64,000 nt of DNA from Candidatus Omnitrophota bacterium (GCA_028712255.1 JAQTQJ010000005.1:20950-84949), one strand, 5' to 3'; positions 6,001-23,799 are shown, numbered from the stretch's first letter. Numbers and translations are program-made. Notes: generated by a model not told the origin, from the letters alone.

Positions 6001-9000
6001 AGAGGCCTTTGAGCCTAGTTTTCAAAGGGGCCAAACCAGGGTTGATTACGCAATAGTAATAGGTATGGCTTCTGTTTTAACTGCAGTTATTGGTTTAGTT
6101 TTTAATGTAGAGATTTTAGATATAATTAATCAGATCGGCTCCTGGCTTACTGTGCTTTTTCATAGCCCTCCAATACAAGTTAATTTTAATTCTTTACCCG
6201 CCATATCAATTGTAACTGCAATTCCCCTTATTTGTTTAATCGGAAATTTCACACATTTTAACTATGTTTTTGAGCCTCAAGGATATATGTTTTTACATGA
6301 AGATGAGGCTGTTCGGGGTTTAGCAAGGAGAGCATTTAATCTGGCTACAGGAGATTTCTATAGGCAGATATTTAAAGAGATTGGCTTAGGTGATAGGGTG
6401 AGAATATTAGATATCGGTTTCGGCGAAGGTTCACATGTAGCCAGCCTTCTTTCGCAAACAAGACATAAGATTGTTGGCCTTGAAGTTATGCCTGAGTATG
6501 TGAAAAAGGCAAGAGAGAAAGATCCTTTGCAGGAGGTGATTGAAAGCGGATGGTATCATATGCAATTTTCTGATAATTTTTTTAATGCAGTTAGCGGGGT
6601 TAATGCGCTTTATTTTGCCGGAAATGAAAAAGAGTTAAGATGGTTAATTACGGAAATTGACCGGGTAATTAAAGCAGGCCCTGACGGGGTAAAAAGGATT
6701 TATCAGCTTTTTGATCGGCCGCTTACCCAATATTGGTTTACTATTGAAGAATGGTCGGTAATGGAGTCTTTAGGTTTATCCACTCCTGCTTTAAGAGTGA
6801 TGAATAATGGATGGAGAAGATTCTTTACAGTCTTGAGTAGCATTTTTAATGAATTAGGTTATGAAGTTAAGCTTTCTTATGTAACCAAAGAGGCGCAAGG
6901 AGAACGCACTGTCTCTCAAAAACAATTAACTTCAAGCTCACGCGGAAATAAATTCTTCTATGATGTAAATGGCAATCGGTCAGTTGAATATAGTAGTTTG
7001 ATTAGTGAGCCCTATGTGGCAGAAGAGGTGGGCGTTTATATTGTGAGGGCATGGAGACGAGAATCCGTCACTAAAGAAGATATGGTGATTCCTTCTGTTG
7101 CCAACGGTTTCTTTGGAAAACATATAAAAATAGATCAAGCGATGGCAGAGAGGTTGATTAAAAGACTGTTTACTCCCGAAGAATTACCAATTGTTAGTTA
7201 TTCTATTGAGCGCCATGAAAATGCGGAAGCCAAAGGTAAGTCACACTGGAAAGCGATAGGTGAACAAAGGAAGGTAAGTGGATATGAATTGGTAAGGGCA
7301 AGGTTGGAATTGTTGCAGATTCTTATTTACTTAGGCTATAAGAATGAAGTGGATTTAATTTCTATGTTTACCGAAATCCAAAATTTATCTTCGCGTAAAG
7401 AATTCACTGATTTCCGGGATAAAATAAAATCAGCCAGAGATACTGAGCAATTAAGGTTAGTTCTGGATGGGTTAATTTCGGTATTCTGGGGCCAGGGTTA
7501 TAGTAATGTAAATAAATACATGCCTATCTTTGAGTTTTTGGTTAATGGTTTACTAGACAAAGATATTTTCAGATTTATAGAAAATTTAGATATACCGTTA
7601 GAAGAACAAGGGGTCCTTAAGAAATTTATAATTTCCTGCGCTACTTTCCATCAGCTAGCCTATATTATTTTTAGTCTATGGGGTATTAATGTGCAGGCTG
7701 CATTTGCTCCAAGCCATGCGTTTCTCCTTATGCCAATTAACCGGCAAAAGGCCATAATTGTTGATTACAGCCTTGAAGTGGTGCGTGTAATTGACCTTTG
7801 GAAATATACTCGGAAAGGAAGAAAATTTGTTCTAATAGAAGAATATCGGGCTCCGTTAGGAAGAGTAATTGCGATTCGTAAGCAAGTCCGCGATGGTAAT
7901 TTAAAAGACATAAGCAGCCTTTTAGACGAAGAATTACTTAGTTCATATTATCCATATATTGAAATTGTCCCAGCCTACGGTTTTACCACAGGTATTTATA
8001 ATGATGTGGGTACTGTTTATAAGGAATTGGGCATGTACCATGAAGCAGGTGGCTATTTTCAGCAAGCTATTAAATTAATGCCCAGTCTTCCTGATGTCCA
8101 CTTTAACTTAGGCGTTACCTATTGGTGTCAGAATAGACCAAGAGAAGCAGTTGAAGAATTAGAGTTAACTACTAAGTATGATCCCGATGACACCGATGCT
8201 TACTATAATCTTGGCACGATTAATTTAGAATTAGGCAGGCAACAAAAAGCAATGACGGCATTAATAAAAGCAATTGAGCTTAATCCCCTTTTAATCGAAG
8301 CCCGTTATAACTTAGCCAATATTTATATGACGCAGGGTAGGTATCTAGAAGCAATCGAACAATACGAAATAGTAATTGTAATAAAACCCGATTTTGCACA
8401 AGCCCATTATAATCTTGGTATAGCTTACTGGCAGATAGGTAATCGGGATAAGGCGTATGAGGTGTATATTCGAGCCATTATATTTTTTAGAAGATGTCTT
8501 AATACTTTACCTCCCGAGGAAGATATGGTCGGGACAAGAATAGATGATCATTCTGTTTCTGGTGCAACTGAAGATGATGTAAGGCGGGAGTTATTAAGAT
8601 TGAGGGAGTTAAGGCTGATTTCTGAATATACGTTAATAGAAGAGGATCATATAATAGAAAGAGCCAGTCAGCTCTATCAGCAATTAACTGGCAAGATAGT
8701 TGATCTTAGAATTTCCAATATTCATTTTAGAAGAGCTCCCTTCGCAAGTAGATACCGCGCTTTCTGGTTGCGCGAAGATAACAAAATAAAAATATATATA
8801 AAAGGAGAGGCTACGGCGTACGATATCCTGCATGAATTCCTGGCTATTTTAGACAAGACAGGCCATTTGTCTAATGTAATTCTTAGTTGTGCTTACCTGC
8901 CTTTATTTGCAAGGAGATTTATTTACAGAATTGTCAATGGTAGGAATAATTCTGCTGTAGATTTTGCTTCTTATGGGGGATTTGCGCGTTTAGGCAGGTT

Positions 9001-12000
9001 TTTAGTAGGGACGGTTCTTGCTCTAATTGGTAAGCTGTCCCTTAAAAGGGGCACTTCTAGCTTTGACACAAGAAACGACCCTAAAAATGTACCGCCTTTC
9101 GTTTTTATATCAGATAAATTCACTTCGCGCGAGAAGCAATTGATTCAAAAAATAACAGCCGAAGTTATTGGTTTGCTTGTCCCTCAAGAGAAGCAGCAAA
9201 AACTAGCCCTACACCCACTTTTTTTCAAGAGAGTGAATGCGTTTGATGTGCTTGTGGATCATAAATTCATATGTACTTTGTACATTCTCAGTGTGTTAAT
9301 TATGTCAGTCGTGAACATCATACTAGGCAGAGATTTATTTTTTAATATTACGACATATCTAGTTGTAGTAGCAATATTATGGGTTGTCATAAACTATAAG
9401 TTCTATAGTTCGGATTTTTCGTATTATATTCAAGGAATAAGGAGGAGGCATAAAATTCTTATTGGCTCTTATATATTTGATGAGCAACTGGTCTCTATGG
9501 TAGCGCATGAAATGTATCATTATCTGAATTCCATTGGTTTAATTAAAAATCCTGATTTAACAACAGCTTTTGACATGCTTTTTACTTTGGAACACTTTGG
9601 GGAAGAAGCTCTTGATGATCATGATTGGTTGGAAGCTGGAGAGATACTTATGGGGATTCCAAATCCGGAAGTTAGGGAAAAAATTTTGTTAAAAACTGCA
9701 AGAATCAGCAGGTTTGCTTTATTGATGAGAAAAGTTTTCGGGTATTTACCTGAGAGATCATGGGGATATATGTATGGGCGCCTCCAAGCAGCCAATGCTT
9801 ATGCATTATCGAGTGTTTTGAATGGCCCACAAGAGGTCAGTTTTATTGCTCGGGATGCCTTGGAATACATAATATTACGCGTCCATGGCTATGAGCCTGG
9901 CGCGGCAGAAGAAACCATTAGAACATATATAAATAATAGGAACAGTTCTGCTTCCATTGGAAAACCCCATCACCTGCGCCCCGTTACGCAGTGGTTGGCT
10001 GGCCAGATTCTCAGGATTGTTGCTCGTCAAAAAGATAATATTTTCTTTAAAGTCTATCGGGAAACCTACAATGCCAACTTAGCCTACATTCAAGAAATCA
10101 ATGGCAACCGAGGCCCGCCTATATTAAAGAAATTTCTTGCTTTTACTCGCCCCATTGCCCGCGGCCTTACTCCTGATGGCGCTATCTGTTGGCTTATTCC
10201 GGTTAAATTTACTACTCAAGAATACCTTTCCGATGAAACCATTGCCTCTATTAGTAAACACGAATCCCAATCTACAGAATTAGAAGGCTTAATCGCGCAG
10301 TATAAATTAGGGACAGTTCTGAAACCAATAGAGAACCGTTTCTCATTTAAGGGGCATTTTAGTTTCGGCTCAATAATCGTCTTCAATAGTTTTTTGAGGC
10401 GCCTGTTTATTTTAGCGGCATTTATAAGTTTAGGAATAGGGCTTTTTTATGCCGCGAGCATAAGCGGGTTGATGAATTGGTATTTGGAAATAAAGGGAGT
10501 TATTCCTGAAGGCTCTTTGATAGGCTCGCCGAAAGCCATATTATTAGATATGCTCACGGGGGTATTGATTTGGGGCTTGCCTGATTTAGCCGGGCAGTAT
10601 TTAAAAGGCAGCCGCATAATATTAAAACAGGCCTTTATTTTGGCTTTTGCCGGTTTCTTTATCGGCGCCCTTTTGCATTTACTTTATAATTTTCCCGAGG
10701 CCGTTCTTCCCTATTTTATGTCACTTTTGGCAAGCAATATCCTGTTGGCAAAAGTGGCAGCCATAGGCGTTGTCCTGGTGATCGGCGTAGGCATCGCCGT
10801 AAGTTATGGCCGCCTCATCTCTTATTTAAAAGCTAATTTCAGAAAAGAAGAGGAAACCGGCAGAGGAATAGAGGCTTTGAAACTTTATGAAGTGCTCTTG
10901 TATAAACTTTTTGTAACTCCAGTTGTTTTAATTTTCATCGTTTTAACGTTTGAGCCGGTATTGCGTGTATTAGTTTCATTGCCTGTTGAAATAATAAAGA
11001 TGATACCGGTAGGGTACCTTATGAACCGTAGAGAGCCGCTTTTTATCACAGGTATTATTCAAAATATTGCTAGGTTTAAGCATTCTGTTGGATATGCCCG
11101 CGGGCGCAAGGATGTTTCTTCTATGCTTGATTCTCAAACTACAAGCGGCCCGGTAAATGGGGACGCTCCCCAAGGGGACACCCTTTATTGCAGCATTATT
11201 CCGGTTGACCCCGCATTATTGGCGCGTTGGGGTAAGCTATTAGCAGGGATACTTCTTAAGCTAATCGAAAAAGTGTCCTGTATCCGTGAAGGGGACAGGT
11301 TCAGCTTTGGTGTAAGAAGCGTCCTTAAATCTATAGGTATCGTAGCGGTTTTTGTGGGCAGCGCTTTTATGATGGCGCATGGGTTAAAGTCAACTGCCGG
11401 CACTGAAGGCTCTTTTGATGTGTATAGTTATATAGTAATTTTTGCCGTTAGTTTTTTAGCAGTATTGTATTGCGTGCTGTTCTTAGGGGCAGCGCTAATA
11501 AACGCTATGACAGATGAATCCGCCAAGAGGGCTTTTGAGAATCAATCTCTCGGGGTATATTATTTGAACCGTGGGGAATACAAAATGGCAAGCTGGTATT
11601 TCAGAAGGGCTGTAGAGTTTGCTCGTAATAGCAGAAAAGACAAATTCCGTTCCGCGTTGGTTGTGGAGAATGTTATGATGGAGGTTTCACGGACAGATTT
11701 CGTAAAAGCATGTGAGCGCGCGCTGGATGCGATACGCAGGTATTTAGATTTAGGCCAGGCCAGAAAAGCAGCTGATATAAAGGTAGGCATTGATAATTCA
11801 ACAACTACAATTATAGCGAGAGAAAACGTGAGGCAGCATGGCCCATTTATGGTTACAAATGAAGAGCCTTTTTCTCATGGCTGTCTGCAATCAGAAATAG
11901 TAAACGCCGATGATCCCTGCGTGCAAAGAATATTAACTGGCGCTTTCGGCGGATTTAACGCCAACAGCCGCTATTACCTTCTCTTTGGCCATTTAGATAT

Positions 12001-15000
12001 GCCTGTTGCCTTAGCAGAAAAAAGAGGAGGCATTTTATCGGGAATAAGGCCTTATATAGAGAAAACGTCTGCAGTATCGCTTATCAGTTGCAGTATTAGG
12101 TATTATCAGATAACGCTTGCTTATTTATGCCGGTTAAGGGGGTTAGAAAATGAGCAGCCAAATAGAGAATTACTTAAAGATATAGAGAGAATCTATACCC
12201 CTAAAACGGCAGATGCATTGTATTTGATGTATTTTAAAACAGTATCCCGCCTCAGGCCTTTTGAAATAAAATTTTTCCATGCCTGGTTCCATTTCCATCC
12301 GTTTTTTAGATGGATAAAAGGGTTTGACCTTCTATATAGGGCGATGGATGATTTAATAGCGCGGGAATCGCAGGAAGTTATTTCCCAGGAAGAAGGATTA
12401 TTAAGAGAAGGGGGCAGGCTCATATATATCCTGCCTGAGCAGATTGAAGAGGTAGCAGCCCTTTGGGATAAATACCCTCGGGGCAAGCGCCAGCCTTTAA
12501 TTCAGTTTTTGGTTGAGTCCGCGCAGTTAAACAGTTATCTATGGGATAAGGAGAGTAGTTATCAGATATACGAACAATTAGCAGAAAGAATCATACCCAG
12601 GGTGTGGCTTACGGCGACATTGGATGAAGCAGGAATGCTTTGCGATTTAATATGGCTTTTATGCCTCAGCGGCTCATACCCGGTGCGCGCCAGATTAGCC
12701 CAAAGCGTATCGTCTTGTCTTTCCGGGCTAAAAACAAAACGAGAAGAAGCTCAGCAGGAAAAAGGAAAATCGCCGCTAATTAAGCTTCAGGCATATGTTC
12801 TGGAGGAGTTTCTTAAGGCCATATATGTAATGTTACTTGGAGACAGTTCGCCTGTAGTCGTAGCAGCAGCTGAAGGCGAGATACGCTTTTTGGTTGGCGC
12901 AAGAGCAATAACCCGCGAAGAATACCTAGCTATGGAAACTTTTTGCGCAGGAATAAAAACCGTACCTGAAATGTTACCAGGTATAGGATATACACCCATA
13001 ATTCCTGAAGGGGCAGAATTAAGATTGCCATATGCTGAAATGACTCAAGGCATAAGGGACATGCTTGGACTGGGTGATTTACCAATCGCCTATAGATTGT
13101 TAGATGAGGGGGTGCGGCGGATAGACCTTTTTAGCCAACAGAAACCGCGCCATCCTTTGGCTCGTCTTTTTGCTTGGCCTCGGGTGTTATTAAGAAGGCT
13201 TACTTTATTAGGCCACGGTGCTCCGAAGCAGTTGCCTGTTATCCGCGCCATCATCCTTAGCTCCCAGCGCCAGGCAGTAGAGAATGATATCATCCGTGCT
13301 CCCCCCGCTGTAATAGAAGAGGTTGACTTCCACCTTCAAGGCTTTGCCCCTGCCCACCACCAAGCCGGTAAGATTTGTTATGAGGAATTTTCTAATTTAA
13401 ATAATTTAATCGAAGCAGTGAGGCGAGCGCAGCATCCGTTCTTAATAAGCTATGCCAGCGGCAAATTTCATTTAGGAATTCTCTTAGATAAGGGGGCATC
13501 TTGGTTGTGCGGGAAGGATTATATTAAGCAAAAAAGGCAAGAGCATTATGTGGGCAGGTATTTTCGTTTAGAAGAAGAAAGAGACTTGGGCATACGAGAG
13601 CGTATATTTCAATTTGAAGCCGCGACAAGTAATCAGTTAGCAAAGGTTTTAGACGGCCAACAAGTTTTGATTATCGGCCCAGGGGATAATTTAGATGAAG
13701 CTGCATACTTTATTAGAAATTACCCGGGCTTAGCGAGAGTGGTAGTTGTAGATTGGCATCTGCCAAATATTATTGATATATTGGAAAAGATGGCAGGATT
13801 AGAGCAGCCTATTAGGGAAAAGATAGTATTGTGTTATAGCGATGCAGCAAGCATGGTTTTTGATGGGGTTTTTACTATTTGTTATTCACGGTATACAATG
13901 GTAGGCGATATCCTTTCTGATGCCGTCATTGATTCTATATGGAGCAGAATCGCCTTAGCGCTTCAGCCCGGCGGATTTTTCATCGGTTATGCGCATGAGG
14001 CTGCGGCATTTTTTGAGAGTTTTAGCAAGATTGCCGGAGGACAGAAATCAGTAAGTATTGCGGTGAGAAGAGAAGGTATCTCTAGGCCACTAGTTAAATT
14101 CGAGAGCAGGGACGGCAATGGGGACGTTTCCCAAGGGTACACCCTTCCAGCTACTGGTTTAGATGGTGAGCAAGTAGTAACTGACGGTATCGTACGTCTC
14201 AGTGCTTTTACAGGCGCGGGATTAATTATGGCCTCTGCGCAGACAGTTTTAAACAATAACTCCTATTATTTGGATCCGCTTTCAGATTCTATTTTCCAGC
14301 CTGCTTTTTTGCTCGAGCTTATGAATAGAGGCCCGCCTGTAGAGTTGTTCGGTATTTCCTCTGATTTATCAGCCCTCTTTTTAATTCCTCTTGTAGCATT
14401 CTTTGCTTTTCCCTCTTTAAGAAGATTTATAAGTACCTTCTGGGCTAGCTTAAAAAATAATCTCAGGGTGTCCCTTTTGAGGACGTCCTTAACAGTGCAA
14501 AAAATATTTGAAAGAGTATTAAATTTAATTAAATCTTTACTGCAAAGTAAAAAAACATCTAATGGCGCGTTTGCATTAGCTCTGTTGGAATTAAGAAAAG
14601 CAAAAGAAGGGCAAAATATTCCCGAAAGGTTAAGTGAAAAGTTAGCATACCTATTTGCATTAGCTGCAAAATATTCTCATTATTCATTCGAGTTTTATGA
14701 ATGGGAAGAATTGGCGCAAGCGGCGGGTTTAGAAAATCCTAAGAAAACAAGAGACTCAATGCCAGATACTAAAAAGGCAATCAGGGTAAGCGCATTTGAT
14801 GTTTATAGAATAGCTAGAAGTAATTGCGTAGAGAGAAGACATATCGAACTGTCATTCTTTAAGCGGTTAATTAGCGGTTCAAAAAGAGTTTTTCATGGCC
14901 GATATATTAAAACATATGGCATATGTGATTGCATAGCTGTAACTTTATATAACAGACAAAATAGAGTAGGGGCGTTATTGCATTTATATAGAGGTTCCAA

Positions 15001-18000
15001 AGTAGACAAGGTGGTAGATAAAGTTTCTTTAGAATTAGAAAGGGAGTTTAATTTAAGGCCTCAGGATTTCAAAGCGCAACTGGTCGGTGGTTGGTGGACG
15101 CAGTCTCAGGAGCTTGCACTAAAAATTACAAAATGCCTTGAAGAAAAACAGATAGCAATCGAAGGAATTGATGTTTTAAATAATCCCGAGAGGTTTATTT
15201 TTGATGGCAGGGACGCTTTCTACGGAGATTGTAGGATCATTTTAGATTTAGAAACAGGAGAAATATTTGATCTTATAGATTTAATAGAGCCTCACGACGG
15301 AATCTCAAGGCATATTATGCACTTTAGATATTACGCTGAATATATATTTAGGAGGATTTATAATGGAGGACAGCGAATGTTTGTTTTGGCTAAAAAAATT
15401 ACCGTTGTCCCCAATTTAAAGAAACTATTTTTAAGTTTATTAATTGCCATGTATTTTTTCTTAAGCCCCTTGCCTAGTAATATAAGTTTTATTGCTCCAG
15501 GGGTGGTTACAGCGAGTGCCCAGACGCCAACTCCTACCCAATTGTCTACTGAAGATGATTATCTAAATCGAGGTAACGAACATTTTTTTAAAAAAGAATA
15601 TGATGCGGCGATTGAAGATTATACTCAGACAATAAAATTAAACCCAACAAATGCCTTTGCTTATCATAATCGAGGAGTCTCATATAATAACAAAGTTGAT
15701 TATGATAGAGCGATTCGAGATTACGATCAGGCAATATTACTAAATCCAAAATATGCTGAGGCTTACAATAGCAGAGGTCTCGCTTATTATTTTAAAGGAG
15801 AAAATGAGAAAGCAATAAAAGATTATGATAGGGCAATAGAATTAGAACCCGATAATGTAAAGTTTAGAGATTTTCGAGCAGATGCTATAGGAAAATTATC
15901 GGTAAAACCAACTTCTACCCTTACAGCGACAGTTACGCGTACTCCTATACCTAAAACATCTACTCCTGTACTTAAATCATCTACGCCTACAGCAACAGCC
16001 ATACATACTCCCATCGTAACCAATTCGCCAACGCCAACATTTATGCCTATCGTATCTAGGGTGGCGACATGGACAGTAATACCTGTTTCCGCAGTTGAAG
16101 GCCCTGGAACGTTGGATAGGATCAAAGATCACTTGAAAGATAAGTGGTTGTGGTTAATTTTTACAATAGGACTAATAGCTATTTTTATTAAATGGAGACA
16201 GCGAATATTTATTTTTGCTCAAAAAATGGTCATTATTCCTAATTTAAAAGGATTTCTTAAATTTAAACCAGTCAGATTTTACTTAGGGTCGGGTAAAGAA
16301 ATTAATAAATTAACTATTCAAGAACGGCTATCTCTAGCCAAGCTGGCAGATCAATATTACGTTAAACAGATTAAGGATGTCCAGCCGAGCCTTATTTGTA
16401 CTGTTAAGAAAATCTTTAGCTTGAGGGGCCTGATCCTTATGTTGGCCGGAGGATTGATTACTTTTAAACTTTCTGTTTCCAATGATTGGCTTACTTTGGC
16501 CCTCGGAGCATTCTTTATGACTTTGTTGCCATACCTGCTTTCTGTCATCTATAATTTCTTCTTTTCATATATAGAACGCTATAGATTCCGTAGTGAATTT
16601 GTCAGGCAATATCTAAGAGATAAAAAAGTACAAGATAAAATAAAAGAAGAGCTTTCACAGATTAAGTCGGTGACTCAACCTTTACTTTCCATTAGAAGTT
16701 TATGGAATGATTTTACTTTAAGATCTCCTGTGTTTGCCGGTATTGTTATCTTTATTTTAGTAAAGGCCCAGATAGTTTTCTGGGGTTACTTAGCTGGTTT
16801 GGCAATTATCCCCTTGATTAGAATTGATATTGTTAACTTTACCTTAACTGGCATATTATCGACAATTTTAAAACTTATAAAATGGGAATGGTTTATCACT
16901 CCGGGTTTACAATTGGTAAATACATTAAATAATTTGGGTTTTGCTTTTACATTAGGGGATATTATTAAGTTGAGTGTAATTGCTTTAGGGTTAGCAATAC
17001 TATACACATCGCGCCACCGTAAAACATTACGTAAAATTGTTATTCATAATTTTAGGCAATTCTGGGTTAATCTAGTACACATCCTGGTTATTATTGCTAT
17101 AATGGGGAATCTCGGACTTAGTAGTTTTATGTTAAATAATTTCAAGCAAGCAACTGGAATTAGATTTCCTCAAGCGATTCATGCTCCTCTTAGCGGTAAA
17201 GTGGATGCAGGAATTTGGAATAGGGCTAATTTTATTTATCAACAGTTAAAAATAAATTCCGACTTAGCTTTGAAGATGGAGAACGGCCAGCAAGAATTGG
17301 AATTTCTATTAGAAGAATTTAAGGCGGGTAATGATATTAAAATCGAGGGGCCGACTGCTCCGGAGGTCAGGCAATTTTGTCTTTTCCTTCTGGGTCAGAA
17401 AGACAATACTCGGTCTAGAGAACTTCTTAATTTAGCTTTAAATGATCCGGATAAAGATGTACGCACGATGGCAATAATTTCTTTAAGTATAGCTGGCGAT
17501 ACGAAAGTAGCGTCTTTGCTTAATAATGCTTCGTTTAGGCAGGGAGGCCAGGTTCAGCAAGCGGCAGTTATTAGTTTGAAAAGTGTAAAGTCTTCTGAGG
17601 TAACGAATTTTCTACTAAAGAGTTTAAAGGATAATTCGCGTTCGGATATCCGTTCTGCTGCGGCAGGGGGGTTGATGGACAGAGTAAGCTTGCAGACAGT
17701 TAAAGATGCTTTGATATTCGCTTTAAATGATCCCGATCCGCTGGTAAGGAAAGCAGCGATTAAATCTTTGGCGCCGATAATCACAGCTGTAATTCCTCAA
17801 GTGGATTTAAAGACAATTGAGTCCATAAAACCACTTTTGTCTGATCCGGATTTGAATGTTCGTCAAGTTGCAATATTAGTTCTAGCTTTACGACTAGATG
17901 ATTTTCCTGGTAATTTAGGCCTTCTTATGCCTAAATTGACTGATTCTGATCAGCAGATTCGTTTGACTACCGTAGCAGCCGTAGGTTCACACCTAGATAA

Positions 18001-21000
18001 GTTTCCGCAATTAAAACAGTCATTTTCCAATATTGCTAAAGATAGTTCGCAGCCCATTGAGATTCGTAAAGCTGCAGTTTTAAGTTTAGGTAATCTAAAA
18101 GATTGGTATTATTTTGTATCTCTAGCTTCAGATCCTGATTGGCAAATACGGGAAATTGTAGCGACTTCTTTTGGCTATTTTGACCAGTTTCAAGCTTTAT
18201 CGTATCTTAGACCGTTATTAAAAGATGATTCTGCAAAAGTTAGATTAGCGGCAGTGAATTCTCTTAGTCATTTCGACGATCCTCAGGTCTCTGAGATTTT
18301 AATCTCGATATTAGAGGATCATGACTTGCAAGTCCGAGAATCTGCGCTTAATATATTAGTTGATAAGAAGCCTCTGGAATTAAAACAGGTGTTCTTGGAT
18401 GTTGGTAGGGATATCTCTCAACCTGCTGAGGTTAGGCAAGATACGCTTCTATATTTATGCAATATAGATTTCTTAAAACGCAATATTTCATCGCCCAATA
18501 GAGCTCAGTATGTTGGTGGTTATAATTTTTTAATTAGTTCAGAAAAACTTCAAAGGGTAGCCTTATTGTTAGGTAATCTGAAAGGTATAATGATTCTTGA
18601 TTTACTTAAGCCTTTAACTAAGGATCTTAATGGGCCGGTGCGGGGAGCCGCTGCTACTTCACTTGGTAATTTTGACCAACCGGAAACCATAGATTATCTT
18701 AAGCCGCTTTTAAATGATTATGAGTGGCCAGTGAGAGTGGCAGCAATGCGTTCTTTAATTAAATTTAATGATCCTCGAGTTGCTGAATTATTAATTCCCC
18801 TGTTAACTCGCCCTGTTTTAGTAGAACCAATAGGTTATAATCCGTGGGTCCGAGAATATACGATTAGCGCCTTGGCTGACAATATAAATCGACCTGAAGT
18901 AAGGGAGATTTTTTTAGGTTTATTAAAATCTTCGTTTAGGGAGGAAGACGCGATTCTGTCAATAATTTCCCAGGCAAATTTAAAGACAATTGAGTCCGTA
19001 GAACCATTTTTGTCTGATCCTAATCCAAGTGTTCGGCGAATTGCAGTATTAGTTTTAGCTTCAAGGTTAGATGATTTTCCTGAAACATTAACTTTCCTTA
19101 TTCCACTTTTTAATGATAATGATTCACAGGTTCGCTCTACCGCTGTTTCAGCCTTAGCTCCGTATATAGGTAAATTTTCGCAATTAAAGCAGCCATTTTT
19201 CAATATTGTTAAAGATGTTTCTCAGCCTATCGAGGCACGCCAGAACGCATTATTTTATTTATCGAAGCTCGATGTCCCGGAAGTAAAAGCTTTGTTAGTT
19301 AGTAATTTAAATAATACTGACTGGAAAATGCGCCAGGCTGCAGTATTAGGTTTAGGTAATCTCAAGGATTCTGAAATTCCCGATTTACTTAAGCCTTTAA
19401 TTCGGGACCCTTACGAGAATGTCAGGCAAGCCGTTGTAACCTCTCTTGGTAATTTTAATCAACCCCAGGTAATTAGTTATCTTAAACTGTTTCTAAATGA
19501 TGATTCTTCGAATGTGCGTAAAAGTGCGATATTATCTATAGGTTCAAGGTTGGATGATTTTCCTGAAAATGTAACTCTTCTTACTCCACTTTTTAATAAT
19601 AAAGATTCACAGGTTCGCTCTGCTGCTGTCTTAGCTTTAGGCCCATACCTAGATAAGTTTCCGCAATTAAAGCAGCCATTTCTGGATATTACTAAAGATG
19701 TTTCGCAACCTATCGAGGCACGCCAGAATGCATTATTTTATTTGTCGAAGCTCGATGTTCCGGAAGTAAAGGCTTTATTAACTAGTAATTTAACTAGCAC
19801 TGATTGGAAAATGCGCCAGGTTGCAGTATCAGGTTTAGGTAATTTTCGAGGCCCCGAAATCTCTGGCCTACTTCAACCTTTAACCTTAGATCCTATTTCG
19901 GCTGTACGTGTGAGTGTTGCATTATCTTTGGGCCAATTAGATGAACCCCAGGCAGCGCAATCATTAGCATTTTTATTAAAAGATAATGATGTTTCTGTTC
20001 GTCAAGCCGCGTTGACATCTTTAGGTCTAAAGTTAGATCTTTTTCCTAAGAATTTAGATCTTTTGATACCGTTTTTAACTGACCCAAATTTACAGATTCG
20101 CTCTACTGCCGTTTCAGTCTTAGGACCAAGTATAGATAAATTCCCACAATTAAAACAACCATTCCTAGATATTGCTAAGGGTCTTTCTATGCCTATTGAT
20201 ATGCGTCAAAATGCGATGTTTTCTTTATCTAAGCTTGATACTCCTGAAGTAAAAGCTCTGCTAACTAGTAATTTAGCTAATACTGATTGGAGAATGCGTC
20301 AGGTTGCAGTATTGGGCTTGGGTAATTTTAAAGGTCCTGAAATCCTAGATCTGCTTAAACCTTTAACCCTTGATCCTGCCTGGCAGGTCAGACAAGCTAC
20401 TGCAACTTCTTTTGGTAACTTCAACCAACCTCAAACTATAGATTACCTTAAGCCGCTTTTAAGTGATAGTTATTGGCAAGTACGGTCGGCTACTACGGCC
20501 TCTCTTGGTAATTTTAATAATCCTCAAGTTCTAGATTCTCTTATCCCTAGACTAAATGATCCTGCTTGGCAGGTACGCGAGAGTACGGCAGTGTCTTTGG
20601 GTCAATTCGATGAATCCAAGATGGTGGAATCATTAATGCCTTTATTAAAAGATAATAATGTTTTTGTGCGGCAAGCCGCTGTATTATCCTTAGGAGATAA
20701 AGTTAGATTGTACCCGCAGTTGTCAGGAGAATTTGTCAATATTTTAAAAACAGACAACGATCTTTGGATTAAACAAATCTCTGCTTTTTCTCTGCAAAGT
20801 ATAAATACGCCGAAGGTAGAGGAAGTAAAACCATTAATTAAACAAGCCACTTCAGAAATAAGAGTTGTCGTTATTATATCTGGAATTGATGATTGGTTAG
20901 GATTTTTTCCCTTGACGGGTCGTAAAACAGGTGAGACTGGATTGAAAAATTGGTCTTTAGTTAATATACTAAAAGCGGGTGGTTTACAGGTGGTTGAACA

Positions 21001-21796
21001 TCCTTGGTCTGGAAATCTTCCTCTTCCTGGATTTCCAGGAAGTATTACTGGAAAAGAGTTTCGGAAGTCACAATTAGATTTAGATAAAACTATTAATCAT
21101 GCATTAGATTTAGCTAATGGAGGCAAGATAGGGGTTATTCTTTATAGCGGCGGTAATTATGTCGCAGAAAGATTATTTGAATCAGATTTATCTCCAAGAA
21201 TAAGGGAGGCATTTGAAGCAGGCAGGATACATATCGATAGTTTAGGCAATCCTTCTACCAAAAACTTCGGCTTATTAGATCCTAATTGGAAAAATATTTG
21301 GTCAATGAGTGACCCTATTTCTATATTGTCTATAATACCCCTTGGTATACATGATGTTTACTTTCCCAATCTTTCCCATTTTTCATATCAATATCCTAAT
21401 GTTATTTCTTATTTAGGGAATGATATAGCTCATTGGAATTACACTCCTACAAGTGGCTCTTGGCCGGGTACCTATAATTTTAATAGCATTGCGCCTTCTG
21501 ATTATTGGAAACAGCAACAATTTCAACAACCCAATTTTGGGTTACCTCAATATCAACCCTTTCCAAGTCAATCACCGTTGAATAATTATCAGCCGCTTCA
21601 GCAGTATCAGCCGTCTATATTGCAACCACAGCAGCCTTTATATCAACCTCCGCCAAGTGAACTTTTTAAAATACAATCACCGATAAATGATTATCAGTCA
21701 TCTCAACAGTATCAATCGCCGATGAGGGATTATCAGCCTTCGATGGCTCAACCTAATCTTCCATCTCTACCTAATTTCGGTGGGATTGGGAAATAA
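2..21796 (+). CDS. Giant multidomain membrane-associated protein of at least 7,245 aa. The reading frame is open to the 5' window edge, so the first candidate start (TTG at 59) may not be the true start. It carries multiple TM clusters, a SAM-MTase motif, HEXXH, a CheD-like motif, TPR blocks, a HEAT/PBS-like repeat array, and a Q/P/Y-rich C-terminal tail.
   Basis: A single uninterrupted 21.7 kb frame in 40% GC DNA is very unlikely by chance. Six-frame track gives 59..21796. I hand-translated the frame back to position 2 and found no stop. Recognisable motifs: ILDIGFGEG (nt about 6404-6430), HEMYH (9506-9520), GICDCIAVTLYN...ALLHLYRG (about 14917-14990), TPR consensus blocks (about 7990-8470 and 15540-15870), and 30-aa LxDxDxxVRxxAxxALG repeats (about 17400-20720). 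Confidence 0.85.
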   Translation, partial: SFLVEITKGGRISDGALEVLAEAFGRINITGADKELHLAALVSIVYLVLPGIDVSEVMSIYLEKEKEYLTGVGLKERVNLAAFVGLMAMLYYQDKNGRDGVLFKNSLSILRTFISESYLNVRDVLEVALEQDMELAMELFHWILIEKADFLFSALTATDIDEAGETDFIIDGVFLADYLLMHTMYLTVIKPDSKRLVKLLKIDPLNTLIKTAMAEAVNPAAKGLDFFVGYSNVEKFFKRFFYPGMASEVELVNEINERLNSFPQRDALGEALEIELLVRFLSDEDIGIFSDTRKNIKSRASILIASVKECVSPAVMSRSGLQRADAIIAEKVKKFIGGDGLLNKEAMAGLLEAIIYFSEDVLMDIFSNVVVPFATKGQFNFGGRTYNVEPGQVSKATEISVSSLIRVYLGHGHPQFEMLKPIFRRNIRKIYELSPDPGKRIIRASIEEAGADTHEVLEVNERTITFHAQLPRQLVLINLAKDKYVQRSDILETSVTEIKRGNAITVTAEPLTFKQEEIVRQAIVDGLTQNSGRMLTAEELAEHDPKGTVSKNKTIVYVLPELAITDHFLVAYANRQMFGMRVFISEAKWVFIKGLHEDTKVEFWKHEVLGHLKHPLWSEAEVKAKYPSEMVVIPATDQATLPQMLKLALEYGDPIAAVTLTREKFRNYGPPNEPVNWDEYLVWLVEKRHTYALEQILNSTPDDREKIKALMERIIFIKTNNPKLRKIEYSPEIKQKLLDVWIFALYSPDIEKLTSALALLEELNAQYPYQNDGLEDGDLVVGKTARPCLTFQIKTQVTKERKRKLVNSLREAIVALGFGELKIQDTQECPLSAFAESLLAQNRCIVPAGTQVVFQDIAGRYAIILKPNIGREYSVAFSDRQTLQSEDFTVAGSFVPGSTRIQDIEIVVGGIRKNLLDFIVEKGFAPEAIKENSLFLEASCCFIYNPSDGKLRMIEGRQVKQFKYKADTGEITWWNSYLPRLKIFSDNQTGSARGVLPGEKVIFVHSHGIKRRKEELRASSMDVDFGIAWTRWSSIFRVGLSNSQSDLVMGTGDSHDLIISETRNGFKFLLLHCSVQENYAVCMSKKYNFSTHRWENEGIEKIEFASGIPGASYAKNGGVTLVCRDNAEALPTDADSWGRRLALSHEAISADFLSNGDYACAIAALRLALVHLPKGVKNKNIRDRIQEKLAQLIVGREASHPNNGSNHSELDLGASGFEGEAMFAERAAEVKYAQSHCVSKLNNDNELIEGVRCFLRQLDLFRLADKYKEIEVRVIGGMGFKHRGWWNIENGRLIIYIKETYASDVLDLQKVILHEILAASRNPVFAGKEGHNNSLALECLYTSFCLDSKQMTIGELLRSYDPHGLLRRIIFRAILSHQEVIDAKLDLGASAKKRQPEPTVSSLSRVAKVILCLILASVVIVAHAVWLLLLIMFGGASQFNLMDIFGINITWGWLIMMETMIAVGLMFASFIMDDGSIVISDVNLHKGHTSPRATEEDIVLSNEQAIMWIQVKQEQGAKTISVLGGKPVSIKEAIEGVNDGRFAGSLTGGDNKLILQVKYPSEKLPTNAYNSDVPCATPPVLTIIDTYEAAEEFFIRRGWKSLPRWVVGIFVSPWYEFQFKWILHPVKFIRAHINKNIWQLISRITGVIFMYAAMLCFLFPAIYLFLTAPSFNVLPNIIQSVLYGIMAFIGVHFVYNIVFFWAMLVLGDDLRFHSEYKRVFTAQQIRGFISWLIEGELQHERQRIVIGFVEGYSEGIFRREGVRIHVAKEFLDSFSELLIRQKLRNALVDRDYKEQDQYSRALELIIQQANIILGPQLFEDSSVEIVDLARRYLIDAVVKHSAWLITFSGILSVWEGVVHSMESQVDARQFGEFMNRLYRIAIKELDVEWVIRKGAVLDREIMVVIGRKMLSLIPDHNFEPTIYSVLMITPDFSLEEVRKRIMYLLSDCITDETINSLKEILVKLDKEKINPEAQAKVIMALKYLCFDVNPGISKFARILLEAFEPSFQRGQTRVDYAIVIGMASVLTAVIGLVFNVEILDIINQIGSWLTVLFHSPPIQVNFNSLPAISIVTAIPLICLIGNFTHFNYVFEPQGYMFLHEDEAVRGLARRAFNLATGDFYRQIFKEIGLGDRVRILDIGFGEGSHVASLLSQTRHKIVGLEVMPEYVKKAREKDPLQEVIESGWYHMQFSDNFFNAVSGVNALYFAGNEKELRWLITEIDRVIKAGPDGVKRIYQLFDRPLTQYWFTIEEWSVMESLGLSTPALRVMNNGWRRFFTVLSSIFNELGYEVKLSYVTKEAQGERTVSQKQLTSSSRGNKFFYDVNGNRSVEYSSLISEPYVAEEVGVYIVRAWRRESVTKEDMVIPSVANGFFGKHIKIDQAMAERLIKRLFTPEELPIVSYSIERHENAEAKGKSHWKAIGEQRKVSGYELVRARLELLQILIYLGYKNEVDLISMFTEIQNLSSRKEFTDFRDKIKSARDTEQLRLVLDGLISVFWGQGYSNVNKYMPIFEFLVNGLLDKDIFRFIENLDIPLEEQGVLKKFIISCATFHQLAYIIFSLWGINVQAAFAPSHAFLLMPINRQKAIIVDYSLEVVRVIDLWKYTRKGRKFVLIEEYRAPLGRVIAIRKQVRDGNLKDISSLLDEELLSSYYPYIEIVPAYGFTTGIYNDVGTVYKELGMYHEAGGYFQQAIKLMPSLPDVHFNLGVTYWCQNRPREAVEELELTTKYDPDDTDAYYNLGTINLELGRQQKAMTALIKAIELNPLLIEARYNLANIYMTQGRYLEAIEQYEIVIVIKPDFAQAHYNLGIAYWQIGNRDKAYEVYIRAIIFFRRCLNTLPPEEDMVGTRIDDHSVSGATEDDVRRELLRLRELRLISEYTLIEEDHIIERASQLYQQLTGKIVDLRISNIHFRRAPFASRYRAFWLREDNKIKIYIKGEATAYDILHEFLAILDKTGHLSNVILSCAYLPLFARRFIYRIVNGRNNSAVDFASYGGFARLGRFLVGTVLALIGKLSLKRGTSSFDTRNDPKNVPPFVFISDKFTSREKQLIQKITAEVIGLLVPQEKQQKLALHPLFFKRVNAFDVLVDHKFICTLYILSVLIMSVVNIILGRDLFFNITTYLVVVAILWVVINYKFYSSDFSYYIQGIRRRHKILIGSYIFDEQLVSMVAHEMYHYLNSIGLIKNPDLTTAFDMLFTLEHFGEEALDDHDWLEAGEILMGIPNPEVREKILLKTARISRFALLMRKVFGYLPERSWGYMYGRLQAANAYALSSVLNGPQEVSFIARDALEYIILRVHGYEPGAAEETIRTYINNRNSSASIGKPHHLRPVTQWLAGQILRIVARQKDNIFFKVYRETYNANLAYIQEINGNRGPPILKKFLAFTRPIARGLTPDGAICWLIPVKFTTQEYLSDETIASISKHESQSTELEGLIAQYKLGTVLKPIENRFSFKGHFSFGSIIVFNSFLRRLFILAAFISLGIGLFYAASISGLMNWYLEIKGVIPEGSLIGSPKAILLDMLTGVLIWGLPDLAGQYLKGSRIILKQAFILAFAGFFIGALLHLLYNFPEAVLPYFMSLLASNILLAKVAAIGVVLVIGVGIAVSYGRLISYLKANFRKEEETGRGIEALKLYEVLLYKLFVTPVVLIFIVLTFEPVLRVLVSLPVEIIKMIPVGYLMNRREPLFITGIIQNIARFKHSVGYARGRKDVSSMLDSQTTSGPVNGDAPQGDTLYCSIIPVDPALLARWGKLLAGILLKLIEKVSCIREGDRFSFGVRSVLKSIGIVAVFVGSAFMMAHGLKSTAGTEGSFDVYSYIVIFAVSFLAVLYCVLFLGAALINAMTDESAKRAFENQSLGVYYLNRGEYKMASWYFRRAVEFARNSRKDKFRSALVVENVMMEVSRTDFVKACERALDAIRRYLDLGQARKAADIKVGIDNSTTTIIARENVRQHGPFMVTNEEPFSHGCLQSEIVNADDPCVQRILTGAFGGFNANSRYYLLFGHLDMPVALAEKRGGILSGIRPYIEKTSAVSLISCSIRYYQITLAYLCRLRGLENEQPNRELLKDIERIYTPKTADALYLMYFKTVSRLRPFEIKFFHAWFHFHPFFRWIKGFDLLYRAMDDLIARESQEVISQEEGLLREGGRLIYILPEQIEEVAALWDKYPRGKRQPLIQFLVESAQLNSYLWDKESSYQIYEQLAERIIPRVWLTATLDEAGMLCDLIWLLCLSGSYPVRARLAQSVSSCLSGLKTKREEAQQEKGKSPLIKLQAYVLEEFLKAIYVMLLGDSSPVVVAAAEGEIRFLVGARAITREEYLAMETFCAGIKTVPEMLPGIGYTPIIPEGAELRLPYAEMTQGIRDMLGLGDLPIAYRLLDEGVRRIDLFSQQKPRHPLARLFAWPRVLLRRLTLLGHGAPKQLPVIRAIILSSQRQAVENDIIRAPPAVIEEVDFHLQGFAPAHHQAGKICYEEFSNLNNLIEAVRRAQHPFLISYASGKFHLGILLDKGASWLCGKDYIKQKRQEHYVGRYFRLEEERDLGIRERIFQFEAATSNQLAKVLDGQQVLIIGPGDNLDEAAYFIRNYPGLARVVVVDWHLPNIIDILEKMAGLEQPIREKIVLCYSDAASMVFDGVFTICYSRYTMVGDILSDAVIDSIWSRIALALQPGGFFIGYAHEAAAFFESFSKIAGGQKSVSIAVRREGISRPLVKFESRDGNGDVSQGYTLPATGLDGEQVVTDGIVRLSAFTGAGLIMASAQTVLNNNSYYLDPLSDSIFQPAFLLELMNRGPPVELFGISSDLSALFLIPLVAFFAFPSLRRFISTFWASLKNNLRVSLLRTSLTVQKIFERVLNLIKSLLQSKKTSNGAFALALLELRKAKEGQNIPERLSEKLAYLFALAAKYSHYSFEFYEWEELAQAAGLENPKKTRDSMPDTKKAIRVSAFDVYRIARSNCVERRHIELSFFKRLISGSKRVFHGRYIKTYGICDCIAVTLYNRQNRVGALLHLYRGSKVDKVVDKVSLELEREFNLRPQDFKAQLVGGWWTQSQELALKITKCLEEKQIAIEGIDVLNNPERFIFDGRDAFYGDCRIILDLETGEIFDLIDLIEPHDGISRHIMHFRYYAEYIFRRIYNGGQRMFVLAKKITVVPNLKKLFLSLLIAMYFFLSPLPSNISFIAPGVVTASAQTPTPTQLSTEDDYLNRGNEHFFKKEYDAAIEDYTQTIKLNPTNAFAYHNRGVSYNNKVDYDRAIRDYDQAILLNPKYAEAYNSRGLAYYFKGENEKAIKDYDRAIELEPDNVKFRDFRADAIGKLSVKPTSTLTATVTRTPIPKTSTPVLKSSTPTATAIHTPIVTNSPTPTFMPIVSRVATWTVIPVSAVEGPGTLDRIKDHLKDKWLWLIFTIGLIAIFIKWRQRIFIFAQKMVIIPNLKGFLKFKPVRFYLGSGKEINKLTIQERLSLAKLADQYYVKQIKDVQPSLICTVKKIFSLRGLILMLAGGLITFKLSVSNDWLTLALGAFFMTLLPYLLSVIYNFFFSYIERYRFRSEFVRQYLRDKKVQDKIKEELSQIKSVTQPLLSIRSLWNDFTLRSPVFAGIVIFILVKAQIVFWGYLAGLAIIPLIRIDIVNFTLTGILSTILKLIKWEWFITPGLQLVNTLNNLGFAFTLGDIIKLSVIALGLAILYTSRHRKTLRKIVIHNFRQFWVNLVHILVIIAIMGNLGLSSFMLNNFKQATGIRFPQAIHAPLSGKVDAGIWNRANFIYQQLKINSDLALKMENGQQELEFLLEEFKAGNDIKIEGPTAPEVRQFCLFLLGQKDNTRSRELLNLALNDPDKDVRTMAIISLSIAGDTKVASLLNNASFRQGGQVQQAAVISLKSVKSSEVTNFLLKSLKDNSRSDIRSAAAGGLMDRVSLQTVKDALIFALNDPDPLVRKAAIKSLAPIITAVIPQVDLKTIESIKPLLSDPDLNVRQVAILVLALRLDDFPGNLGLLMPKLTDSDQQIRLTTVAAVGSHLDKFPQLKQSFSNIAKDSSQPIEIRKAAVLSLGNLKDWYYFVSLASDPDWQIREIVATSFGYFDQFQALSYLRPLLKDDSAKVRLAAVNSLSHFDDPQVSEILISILEDHDLQVRESALNILVDKKPLELKQVFLDVGRDISQPAEVRQDTLLYLCNIDFLKRNISSPNRAQYVGGYNFLISSEKLQRVALLLGNLKGIMILDLLKPLTKDLNGPVRGAAATSLGNFDQPETIDYLKPLLNDYEWPVRVAAMRSLIKFNDPRVAELLIPLLTRPVLVEPIGYNPWVREYTISALADNINRPEVREIFLGLLKSSFREEDAILSIISQANLKTIESVEPFLSDPNPSVRRIAVLVLASRLDDFPETLTFLIPLFNDNDSQVRSTAVSALAPYIGKFSQLKQPFFNIVKDVSQPIEARQNALFYLSKLDVPEVKALLVSNLNNTDWKMRQAAVLGLGNLKDSEIPDLLKPLIRDPYENVRQAVVTSLGNFNQPQVISYLKLFLNDDSSNVRKSAILSIGSRLDDFPENVTLLTPLFNNKDSQVRSAAVLALGPYLDKFPQLKQPFLDITKDVSQPIEARQNALFYLSKLDVPEVKALLTSNLTSTDWKMRQVAVSGLGNFRGPEISGLLQPLTLDPISAVRVSVALSLGQLDEPQAAQSLAFLLKDNDVSVRQAALTSLGLKLDLFPKNLDLLIPFLTDPNLQIRSTAVSVLGPSIDKFPQLKQPFLDIAKGLSMPIDMRQNAMFSLSKLDTPEVKALLTSNLANTDWRMRQVAVLGLGNFKGPEILDLLKPLTLDPAWQVRQATATSFGNFNQPQTIDYLKPLLSDSYWQVRSATTASLGNFNNPQVLDSLIPRLNDPAWQVRESTAVSLGQFDESKMVESLMPLLKDNNVFVRQAAVLSLGDKVRLYPQLSGEFVNILKTDNDLWIKQISAFSLQSINTPKVEEVKPLIKQATSEIRVVVIISGIDDWLGFFPLTGRKTGETGLKNWSLVNILKAGGLQVVEHPWSGNLPLPGFPGSITGKEFRKSQLDLDKTINHALDLANGGKIGVILYSGGNYVAERLFESDLSPRIREAFEAGRIHIDSLGNPSTKNFGLLDPNWKNIWSMSDPISILSIIPLGIHDVYFPNLSHFSYQYPNVISYLGNDIAHWNYTPTSGSWPGTYNFNSIAPSDYWKQQQFQQPNFGLPQYQPFPSQSPLNNYQPLQQYQPSILQPQQPLYQPPPSELFKIQSPINDYQSSQQYQSPMRDYQPSMAQPNLPSLPNFGGIGK
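17400..20720 (+). repeat. Intragenic HEAT/PBS-lyase-like repeat array inside the giant ORF. Three tandem super-repeats of about 483 bp (161 aa) start near 19179, 19662 and 20145; an older diverged copy starts near 18005.
   Basis: Protein shows recurring DPxxxVRxxAxxxLGN units. Nucleotide stretches such as 19179-19320 and 19662-19800 are about 90% identical at a 483-bp offset. Confidence 0.75.
21490..21796 (+). repeat. Low-complexity Gln/Pro/Tyr-rich C-terminal tail of the giant protein, with YQP/QQYQ repeats.
   Basis: Translation reads KQQQFQQPNFGLPQYQPFPSQSPLNNYQPLQQYQPSILQPQQPLYQPP... Confidence 0.7.
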
Positions 21797-21935
21797 GAAA
21801 GAAGATGAAAAAAACTATTAATTTATAGGTGTTTTTTTGGAAATAAGCCTAGCGGTAACTATACCATCATACACGCTGCCATAATAGACTTATACACTAT
21901 CACCGCGCAGCGTTAAATAGAGAGGAGAGAGTATA

Positions 21936-22337
21936 ATGAATAAGATAAATTTATTTTTACTAATAGTAATAAGCTTAATAGCAATCTGCGTTGATTGTTA
22001 TGCTGGGTACTTTCTTTTTTTTATGACCGCTATGCCTATAGGGTATTATTTATCTCCAATTTTATTATTGATTATTGTTATATCGGCGCCAACCATCTTT
22101 ATTGTTTCGATTATAAATTTATTTAAATTTAAAAAATGGGCGTATTACGCATTTTTTATTATAACAGTCTTGATGCATTTGTTTTTGATAGGGTTAGATA
22201 TGTATTTTTTAAATACTAAAATAATCAAGTACCTAAAGATCGAACAGTTCATTCCCATAATTTCATTGTCATTTTTCGTTATATATTTTATGCTTCCATC
22301 TACCAAAAGCATGTTTAAATATATATCTAAAACATAA
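21936..22337 (+). CDS. Small hydrophobic membrane protein with about 4 TM helices; hypothetical.
   Basis: ORF of 133 aa, strongly hydrophobic and Ile/Leu/Phe-rich. Preceded by gagaggagagagtataATG. Confidence 0.4.
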   Translation: MNKINLFLLIVISLIAICVDCYAGYFLFFMTAMPIGYYLSPILLLIIVISAPTIFIVSIINLFKFKKWAYYAFFIITVLMHLFLIGLDMYFLNTKIIKYLKIEQFIPIISLSFFVIYFMLPSTKSMFKYISKT

Positions 22338-23786: not shown

Positions 23787-23799
23787 AAAGGAGTGTAGA

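Follow-up and report, generated by a model that had tools for sequence, protein, structure and literature searches.

Giant proteins of Candidatus Omnitrophota, known as 'Archaeovorins', have the HEAT repeat as their commonest domain, and HEAT repeats were detected only in those regions of them that are predicted to be extracellular (West-Roberts et al. 2023, bioRxiv 10.1101/2023.11.21.568195). A 2026 survey of long Omnitrophota genes (bioRxiv 10.64898/2026.06.07.730766) ascribes their repeat architecture to ancient duplication, with the tandems largely dissolved at the nucleotide level. Here we examined a stretch of 64,000 nucleotides from a Candidatus Omnitrophota bacterium (GCA_028712255.1, JAQTQJ010000005.1:20950-84949; hereafter the window, with positions counted from its first base), in which a preliminary description had reported a HEAT/PBS-lyase-like array with recently amplified 483-bp super-repeats. 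This array is a regular HEAT α-solenoid of the PBS/alphaRep type, and it forms part of a giant polytopic membrane protein that synteny assigns to Candidatus Omnitrophota. In our judgement it is probably an old and selectively maintained arm that tethers a lipase-like domain, likely outside the cytoplasm, and that owes its length to old cassette duplications.

The locus resembles the Archaeovorins and other long Omnitrophota proteins in its origin, its very long open reading frame (ORF), its many transmembrane helices, the dominance of HEAT_2 among its repeats, its additional TPR and methyltransferase domains, the GH2-type and sugar-uptake genes that adjoin it, and the fact that its repeats are old duplications. 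It is unlike the Archaeovorins in that the visible ORF spans at least 7,264 aa compared with examples of 30,000-147,000 aa, in that, across the visible 7,264 aa (the N-terminus lying outside the window), Pfam matched neither glycosyltransferases nor glycoside hydrolases, peptidases or NUDIX domains, and in that the HEAT arm ends in an unannotated α/β-hydrolase domain. Published work already covers HEAT arrays in giant proteins of Omnitrophota, and the present locus fits that picture; what adds modestly to the literature is the lengthening of the arm by a defined five-hairpin cassette, its invariable ending in a tiny orphan α/β-hydrolase family with invariant Ser, Asp and His, and the internal lipoprotein-like signals ahead of this module in many relatives. 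The terms 'lipase', 'esterase' and 'lipoprotein' are unmentioned in West-Roberts et al. 2023, while the 2026 preprint was not searched for them. If true, the hydrolase family and the lipoprotein-like signals would bear on the membrane side on which domains of these proteins lie and on their processing into pieces.

The array lies within one plus-strand reading frame that runs uninterrupted from window base 2 until its stop codon (21794-21796) and holds at least 7,264 codons, with ORF calling placing it at 59..21796. Its length is a lower bound, as the frame is cut by the left window edge and the true N-terminus lies outside. The array of ~1,100 aa originally described is not a separate protein and belongs to the C-terminal part of this much longer ORF. 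The features on which the repeat analysis depends are as follows.

2..21796, plus strand: giant ORF; its product, a polytopic membrane protein, combines the HEAT array with a methyltransferase domain, two TPR blocks and, at the C-terminus, a hydrolase domain.
17414..20818, plus strand: HEAT array (PBS/alphaRep type), ~35 units, 1,135 aa, ORF aa 5786-6920.
17807..18289, plus strand: super-repeat c0, diverged and older (super-repeat hidden Markov model (HMM) scores of 138 and 94 for the entry that joins c0 and the degenerate copy).
~18191-18679, plus strand: degenerate further copy, overlapping the end of c0.
18980..19462, plus strand: super-repeat c1, 161 aa, five HEAT units (super-repeat HMM score 307).
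19463..19945, plus strand: super-repeat c2, 161 aa, five HEAT hairpins.
19946..20428, plus strand: super-repeat c3, 161 aa, five HEAT hairpins.
19054..19353 in c1 against 19537-19836 in c2, plus strand: probable homogenised tract, 300 nt, 85% identical between the two and 73% identical to its c3 counterpart.

Pfam analysis of the giant ORF detected a Methyltransf_25/11 domain, two TPR blocks and a HEAT signal that was very strong toward the C-terminus. HEAT_2 (PF13646) matched in 13 stretches with E=1.3e-133 (436 bits against a cutoff of 27.7) and HEAT_PBS (PF03130) with E=8e-31 (103.4 bits against a cutoff of 20.9), which bears out the HEAT/PBS-type identity that had been proposed. A unit HMM built from the array identified 28 confident units across aa 5786-6920, and ~6 further degenerate units were read by eye between them, giving ~35 in total. 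The unit consensus, TLELLKPLLNDPDWQVRQAAVLSLGNFDDPQV, agrees with the previously noted motif L.PLL.D.D..VR..A..ALGN(F/L). The unit itself was also recognised correctly, but its length has to be revised from 30 aa to a mode of 31 aa (range 30-38), with the nucleotide self-match peaking at 93 nt and not at 90; likewise, the array is present where it was placed (17400-20720), with the end coordinate set ~100 nt too early. Two antisense ORFs called within the array (18835-19203; 20602-20850) were discounted as spurious.

An AlphaFold2 (AF2) model of c1-c3 (18980-20428, 483 aa) had a mean predicted local distance difference test (pLDDT) score of 92.2 and contained 30 helices, arranged as 15 hairpins with five in each cassette. 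Using Foldseek against the PDB, the best match to this model was the alphaRep 6fsq (24% identity, E 1.6e-12), followed by the PP2A PR65/A subunit, karyopherins and CAND1 (E ~1e-10 to 1e-9; template modelling scores 0.45-0.59). A thermostable subgroup of HEAT-like repeats served as the starting point for designing the alphaRep proteins (PMC3754942), and the array shares with these proteins and with the PBS-lyase-type repeats a helix-turn-helix unit of ~31 residues and an Asp-Pro...Val-Arg...Ala...Leu-Gly consensus. The PBS lyases CpcE/F are short, cytoplasmic, cyanobacterial and bilin-attaching, whereas here ~35 units are built into the giant membrane protein of a non-phototroph, and a CpcE/F-like function was rejected given the Omnitrophota synteny, the ORF of at least 7,264 aa and the lack of any phycobiliprotein gene among the twenty neighbouring ORFs scanned. 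PR65/A, the karyopherins and CAND1 likewise form extended α-solenoids of stacked hairpins and serve as flexible protein-binding scaffolds; unlike the present array, they are eukaryotic and cytoplasmic or nuclear, have longer and less regular units, and are neither tethered to a membrane, fused to an enzyme nor organised as five-unit super-repeats.

Within 17000-21800 the strongest self-match of the sequence occurred at a lag of 483 (0.377, whereas other in-frame lags averaged 0.280, SD 0.009; z=10.5), while in a control stretch of the same ORF the self-match never rose above 0.299. Tandem Repeats Finder (TRF) also reported a period of 483 over 19062-20377, with 2.7 copies and 74% matches, and the 483-bp periodicity is therefore genuine. 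With copy boundaries anchored on a DDFP/DLFP motif, three 161-aa super-repeats of five HEAT units each stand in tandem over 18980-20428, the tandem arrangement itself having been described before. The copy starts given earlier (near 19179, 19662, 20145 and 18005) keep phase with these copies, as judged by where the DKFPQLKQ motif falls in each. The older, diverged copy near 18005 corresponds to c0, which is 48-53% identical to c1-c3 in nucleotides and 33-35% in amino acids when ungapped, rising to 42-47% amino acid identity in a gapped alignment.

We compared c1-c3 over the full 483 nt and estimated synonymous divergence (dS) by the Nei-Gojobori method. c1 and c2 were 73% identical in nucleotides and 63% in amino acids with a dS of 0.70, c1 and c3 were 68% and 60% identical with a dS of 1.04, and c2 and c3 were 67% and 59% identical with a dS of 0.97. 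In all three pairs the ratio of non-synonymous to synonymous divergence (dN/dS) was ~0.3, which indicates that the copies are kept by purifying selection. The nucleotide identity of roughly 90% first reported does not apply to the whole unit; it is approached in the 300-nt core shared by c1 and c2, at 85%, and reaches 88-89% only in 90-nt windows of this pair. This core had a dS of 0.35 compared with ~2.8 in its flanks, and identity at third codon positions was 81/102 in the core and 28/59 in the flanks (Fisher p=5e-5), a contrast that was not seen in c1-c3 or c2-c3. The c1-c2 tract is therefore probably the product of a later gene conversion or partial re-duplication laid over an older triplication.

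The preliminary description had presented the array as a recent amplification, still expanding and contracting by recombination, typical of contingency or surface-interaction proteins and a hazard for assembly. Such an account can call on the tandem periodicity, the single tract at 85% identity and a super-repeat number that varies between lineages, but dS values that lie at 0.7-1.0 for the copy pairs and fall to 0.35 at the lowest, in one tract, together with an overall nucleotide identity of 67-73%, do not describe a recent event, and we regard it as highly improbable. The longest exact repeat in the whole array is 25 nt; aligned in register, c1 and c2 share exact runs of no more than 20 nt, and the other two pairs have none that reaches 15 nt. 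In E. coli the minimal processing segment for RecA-dependent recombination is ~23-27 nt, so that the exact repeats lie at or below this length; repeats this short offer little purchase to homologous recombination and make the array only a minor problem for assembly, which speaks against ongoing copy-number change. Contingency behaviour is also not apparent, as a unit of 3 x 161 nt cannot shift the reading frame when its copy number changes, the copies are far from near-identical, and dN/dS is ~0.3. The 2026 survey of long Omnitrophota genes (bioRxiv 10.64898/2026.06.07.730766), which took up the question raised by the preliminary description, likewise argues against recent tandem expansion.

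Tandem repeats are known to collapse or expand in short-read assemblies, and the three tandem copies might accordingly be thought to arise from mis-joined or mis-counted repeats. However, 27-33% of positions differ between copies and the longest exact stretch in common is 25 nt, so that short reads can separate them; the reading frame is intact over 21.8 kb; the synonymous and non-synonymous differences of each copy are consistent with selection; and independent assemblies of relatives show one or two cassettes in tandem. We thus consider an assembly artefact scarcely credible, and even less so than recent instability. As neither hypervariability nor an assembly problem is upheld, the region can be trusted and the HEAT arm of this Omnitrophota giant protein taken to be an ordinary one.

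Using the non-repetitive C-terminal segment as a query led to a syntenic locus in a Candidatus Omnitrophota metagenome-assembled genome (L001), where the gene order is giant ORF, PilZ protein, sugar-binding protein, two permeases and a GH2-like gene; this order recurs in other contigs, and orthologous syntenic loci lie on the Candidatus Omnitrophota contigs JBAYMG010000018.1 and JBTSUS010000024.1. A metagenome scan with the C-terminal domain as query recovered 36 loci, and an exhaustive representative search of 1.84 billion protein clusters returned only 36 cluster representatives. The closest relative, P0014, has 66% amino acid identity in the C-terminal domain, and no closer one was found in the metagenome scan (best 56%, C-terminal-domain query) or in a genome scan (best 39%, longer C-terminal query).

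Repeat number differs between these lineages, which the preliminary description had proposed to examine. A single full-length cassette is present in L001/P0033, P0014, P0005 and P0019, and two are present in P0015, P0017 and L022, compared with four or five in this window (c0, the degenerate copy at ~18191-18679, c1, c2 and c3). Upstream of the C-terminal domain, 2-13 HEAT units were detectable in relatives versus 28 here, with counts in distant relatives being underestimated because the unit HMM was trained on this window. TRF analysis of the arrays of 18 relatives found no nucleotide tandem on the scale of a super-repeat, the sole match being a 93-nt repeat of 2.3 copies in L009. Neighbour-joining (NJ) trees, which carry no support values, placed c1-c3 in a clade of their own and united c0 with the first cassette of L022 and that of P0017, and cassette amino acid identity was 62-66% among c1-c3 versus 53-59% to the cassettes of other lineages. 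The simplest reading of these sequence comparisons is an ancient cassette duplication that separated c0 from the rest and is shared with other lineages, followed by a lineage-specific triplication giving c1-c3. This triplication would be old, since the identity among the paralogues (62-66%) is no higher than that of the adjacent domain to its nearest orthologue (66%). Copy number has thus changed, but over long evolutionary time.

The arm is followed by a compact domain and a low-complexity tail.

20852..21523, plus strand: orphan α/β-hydrolase (lipase/cutinase-like) domain, as predicted from the AF2 fold and Foldseek.
21146-21148, 21311-21313 and 21377-21379, plus strand: codons of the candidate triad Ser, Asp and His (S105, D160, H182).
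21524..21793, plus strand: Gln/Pro/Tyr-rich low-complexity tail (Gln 22%, Pro 20%).

The C-terminal domain had no Pfam match even at E values up to 10 and none in NCBIfam, and a sequence search of solved structures gave a chance match only. Its AF2 model, of moderate confidence (pLDDT 73.9, predicted template modelling score 0.77, five-sequence alignment), has an α/β fold whose invariant Ser lies where a nucleophile elbow would be, between a strand (98-104) and a helix (106-115). Foldseek matched this model to Rv3802c, family I lipases, mycobacteriophage LysB, cutinases and B. subtilis LipA. Ser105, Asp160 and His182 are invariant in all six sequences compared and follow the canonical order, and the domain shares the elbow Ser and the Ser-Asp-His order with minimal lipases and cutinases (Lip_vut1, 6nkc; Streptomyces lipase, 5h6g; LipA, 1i6w; LysB, 3hc7; Rv3802c, 5w95). 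It is unlike them in having only 10-20% identity to them, no Pfam or NCBIfam assignment, an LYSGG elbow and a HEAT-arm tether. The fold is assigned as lipase/cutinase-like α/β-hydrolase, and the domain may be catalytically active. The order of HEAT array, hydrolase domain and tail is kept in all relatives (>40), with the hydrolase domain always C-terminal.

Tails in P0002, P0004, P0015 and P0018 are similarly rich in Gln, Pro and Tyr, and in these as in the window protein the tail comes after a conserved GSWPGxYNFxSIAPxDYW motif, which is duplicated in some relatives.

Ahead of the array, a Kyte-Doolittle hydropathy scan found ~25 hydrophobic segments clustered along the giant ORF, and the following features precede the arm.

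15395..15526, plus strand: internal Sec signal peptide-like segment, KKITVVPNLKKLFLSLLIAMYFFLSPL...VVTASA followed by Q, aa 5113-5156, read from the translation.
15551-15868, plus strand: TPR block (TPR_1 E=2.3e-27), downstream of the Sec-like segment.
15896-16063, plus strand: Thr/Pro-rich linker, read from the translation.
16391..17134, plus strand: last cluster of predicted transmembrane helices (Kyte-Doolittle), aa 5445-5692, with final helix LVHILVIIAIMGNLGLSSF preceded by RHRKTLRKIVIHNFRQFW.

The 20 residues before the last helix contain 6 Lys and Arg, compared with 2 in the 20 residues after it, and by the positive-inside rule this basic loop favours an orientation with the C-terminus out. 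In ten more distant relatives (L006, L008, L010, L012, L015, L016, L020, L021, L024 and L027) a lipoprotein-type signal directly precedes the module, formed of a K/R-rich n-region, a hydrophobic core of 14-17 aa, a small residue (Arg in L016) and then Cys. These segments are embedded in giant ORFs and lie 228-915 aa ahead of the hydrolase domain; the Cys is absent from the window protein and from L001. Judged from such internal signals, the giant proteins of relatives may be processed. Pro/Gln/Tyr-rich tails and Thr/Pro linkers, such as those seen here, are typical of exported proteins. The array is probably extracytoplasmic as far as these sequence features can tell, and of the contingency or surface-interaction protein first suggested, a role outside the cytoplasm in interaction with surfaces is plausible, being in line with the positive-inside rule, the signals of relatives and the extracellular regions of West-Roberts et al. 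2023, while the contingency part is not.

A cytoplasmic scaffold on the inner face of the membrane would place the array differently. In this case the arm would organise proteins or the enzymatic domains of its own polypeptide, and the hydrolase substrate would be cytoplasmic or in the inner leaflet. Two helices in aa 5557-5597 would put the C-terminus inside, ORFs that start within the array (L002/L005 and L033) have no signal peptide, and the 2026 preprint puts 46% of long Omnitrophota proteins in a class with transmembrane segments only, with the bulk predicted to be cytoplasmic. The strongly basic loop, the lipoprotein-type signals of ten relatives, and the export-typical tails and linkers all argue against this placement, as does the finding that its seeming stand-alone versions are interrupted longer ORFs or fragments beside assembly gaps. 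We therefore see the cytoplasmic scaffold as a serious but unlikely alternative.

These stand-alone versions, of 504-564 aa (P0002 in L002/L005, P0003 in L004, and L033) and of 1,450 aa (P0014), were rejected as a distinct cytoplasmic module and reclassified as interrupted or truncated ORFs. The HEAT array of L033 contains an in-frame stop (~nt 180), and L004 has an N-gap just upstream of the module (~9990). In L002, HEAT units already occur upstream of the called start, and multiple frame changes are present in the two independent assemblies L002/L005 (7743-10000). In L009, a change of frame separates the array from the hydrolase domain (~5309-5358), and the ORF of P0014 is open at its contig start. 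Being interrupted or truncated, the short versions are uninformative on where the module is located. The interruptions in L033, L009, L002/L005 and L004 could reflect decay, recoding or the limits of assembly.

Returning to the extracytoplasmic, hydrolase-tethering arm that we favour, several points count against it and have to be set beside the evidence above. With regard to topology, West-Roberts et al. 2023 call predictions of this kind unreliable. Counting helices from aa 5113-5156 gives either orientation, depending on whether aa 5557-5615 holds one, two or three helices. To our knowledge, all characterised HEAT proteins are intracellular, either cytoplasmic or nuclear. With regard to the hydrolase, the moderate confidence of the model is joined by a triad judged from sequence order and by the elbow, which in the window protein is LYSGG and not G-x-S-x-G, the relatives P0004 and L001 having GHSAG or GYSAG. 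With regard to history, concerted evolution could mimic a lineage-specific triplication in trees that lack support values, and the unit counts of distant relatives are understated.

In the favoured arrangement, ~35 HEAT hairpins join the last transmembrane cluster to the C-terminal hydrolase domain and its Gln/Pro-rich tail. The arm would have grown by duplication of the five-hairpin, 161-aa cassette, through an ancient shared duplication, an old lineage-specific triplication giving c1-c3 and a later homogenisation of 300 nt between c1 and c2. It may act both as a spacer and as a protein-binding scaffold that holds the hydrolase domain off the membrane, and its reach would be set by the number of cassettes, changing on evolutionary time scales and not serving as a switch.

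More tentatively, the HEAT arm, the lipase-like domain and the tail could constitute an exported effector module that ends the giant 'polyproteins' of Omnitrophota, cut by signal peptidase II and lipid-anchored in many relatives, and tethered by a signal-anchor helix here. We rate this as a rather doubtful extension; were it true, the elongated arm of ~35 hairpins could allow an esterase to reach the envelope of a host or prey cell.

Elsewhere in the giant ORF, a 'PNLK' motif before a hydrophobic stretch recurs at aa 5389 (~nt 16223). The N-terminal half contains an 'IYIK...(V/I)LHE(I/F)LA' module twice, and there is one HExxH motif in the ORF (VAHEMYHYL, aa 3150), the sites of all these lying at ~3938, 8828 and 9506. 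Together these may represent degenerate metallopeptidase-like modules, none of which falls under Pfam cover.

The neighbouring genes in the window, all on the plus strand, encode an IS200-type transposase, proteins with PD40 and PilZ domains, a sugar transporter of the ABC type and a GH2-like protein, as well as members of the ROK and LacI families, ribonucleotide reductase, MnmG and a two-component system.

22481-22975, plus strand: IS200-type Y1 transposase gene (Y1_Tnp E 8e-18), between the giant and PilZ genes.

For the small genes at the equivalent position in L002, L003 and L004, no Y1_Tnp match was recorded. Two plus-strand ORFs, at 22992-23786 and 23575-25134, overlap by ~210 nt, the second carrying PD40 β-propeller repeats, and this pair (22992-25134) may be a frameshifted gene or have a mis-called start. 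Across the window, 37 of the 38 ORFs of at least 150 aa lie on the plus strand, with the exception nested within a plus-strand ORF, and GC skew is positive in all 2-kb bins but one (-0.003, 20001-22000), a pattern consistent with a single replichore and a strong gene-strand bias.

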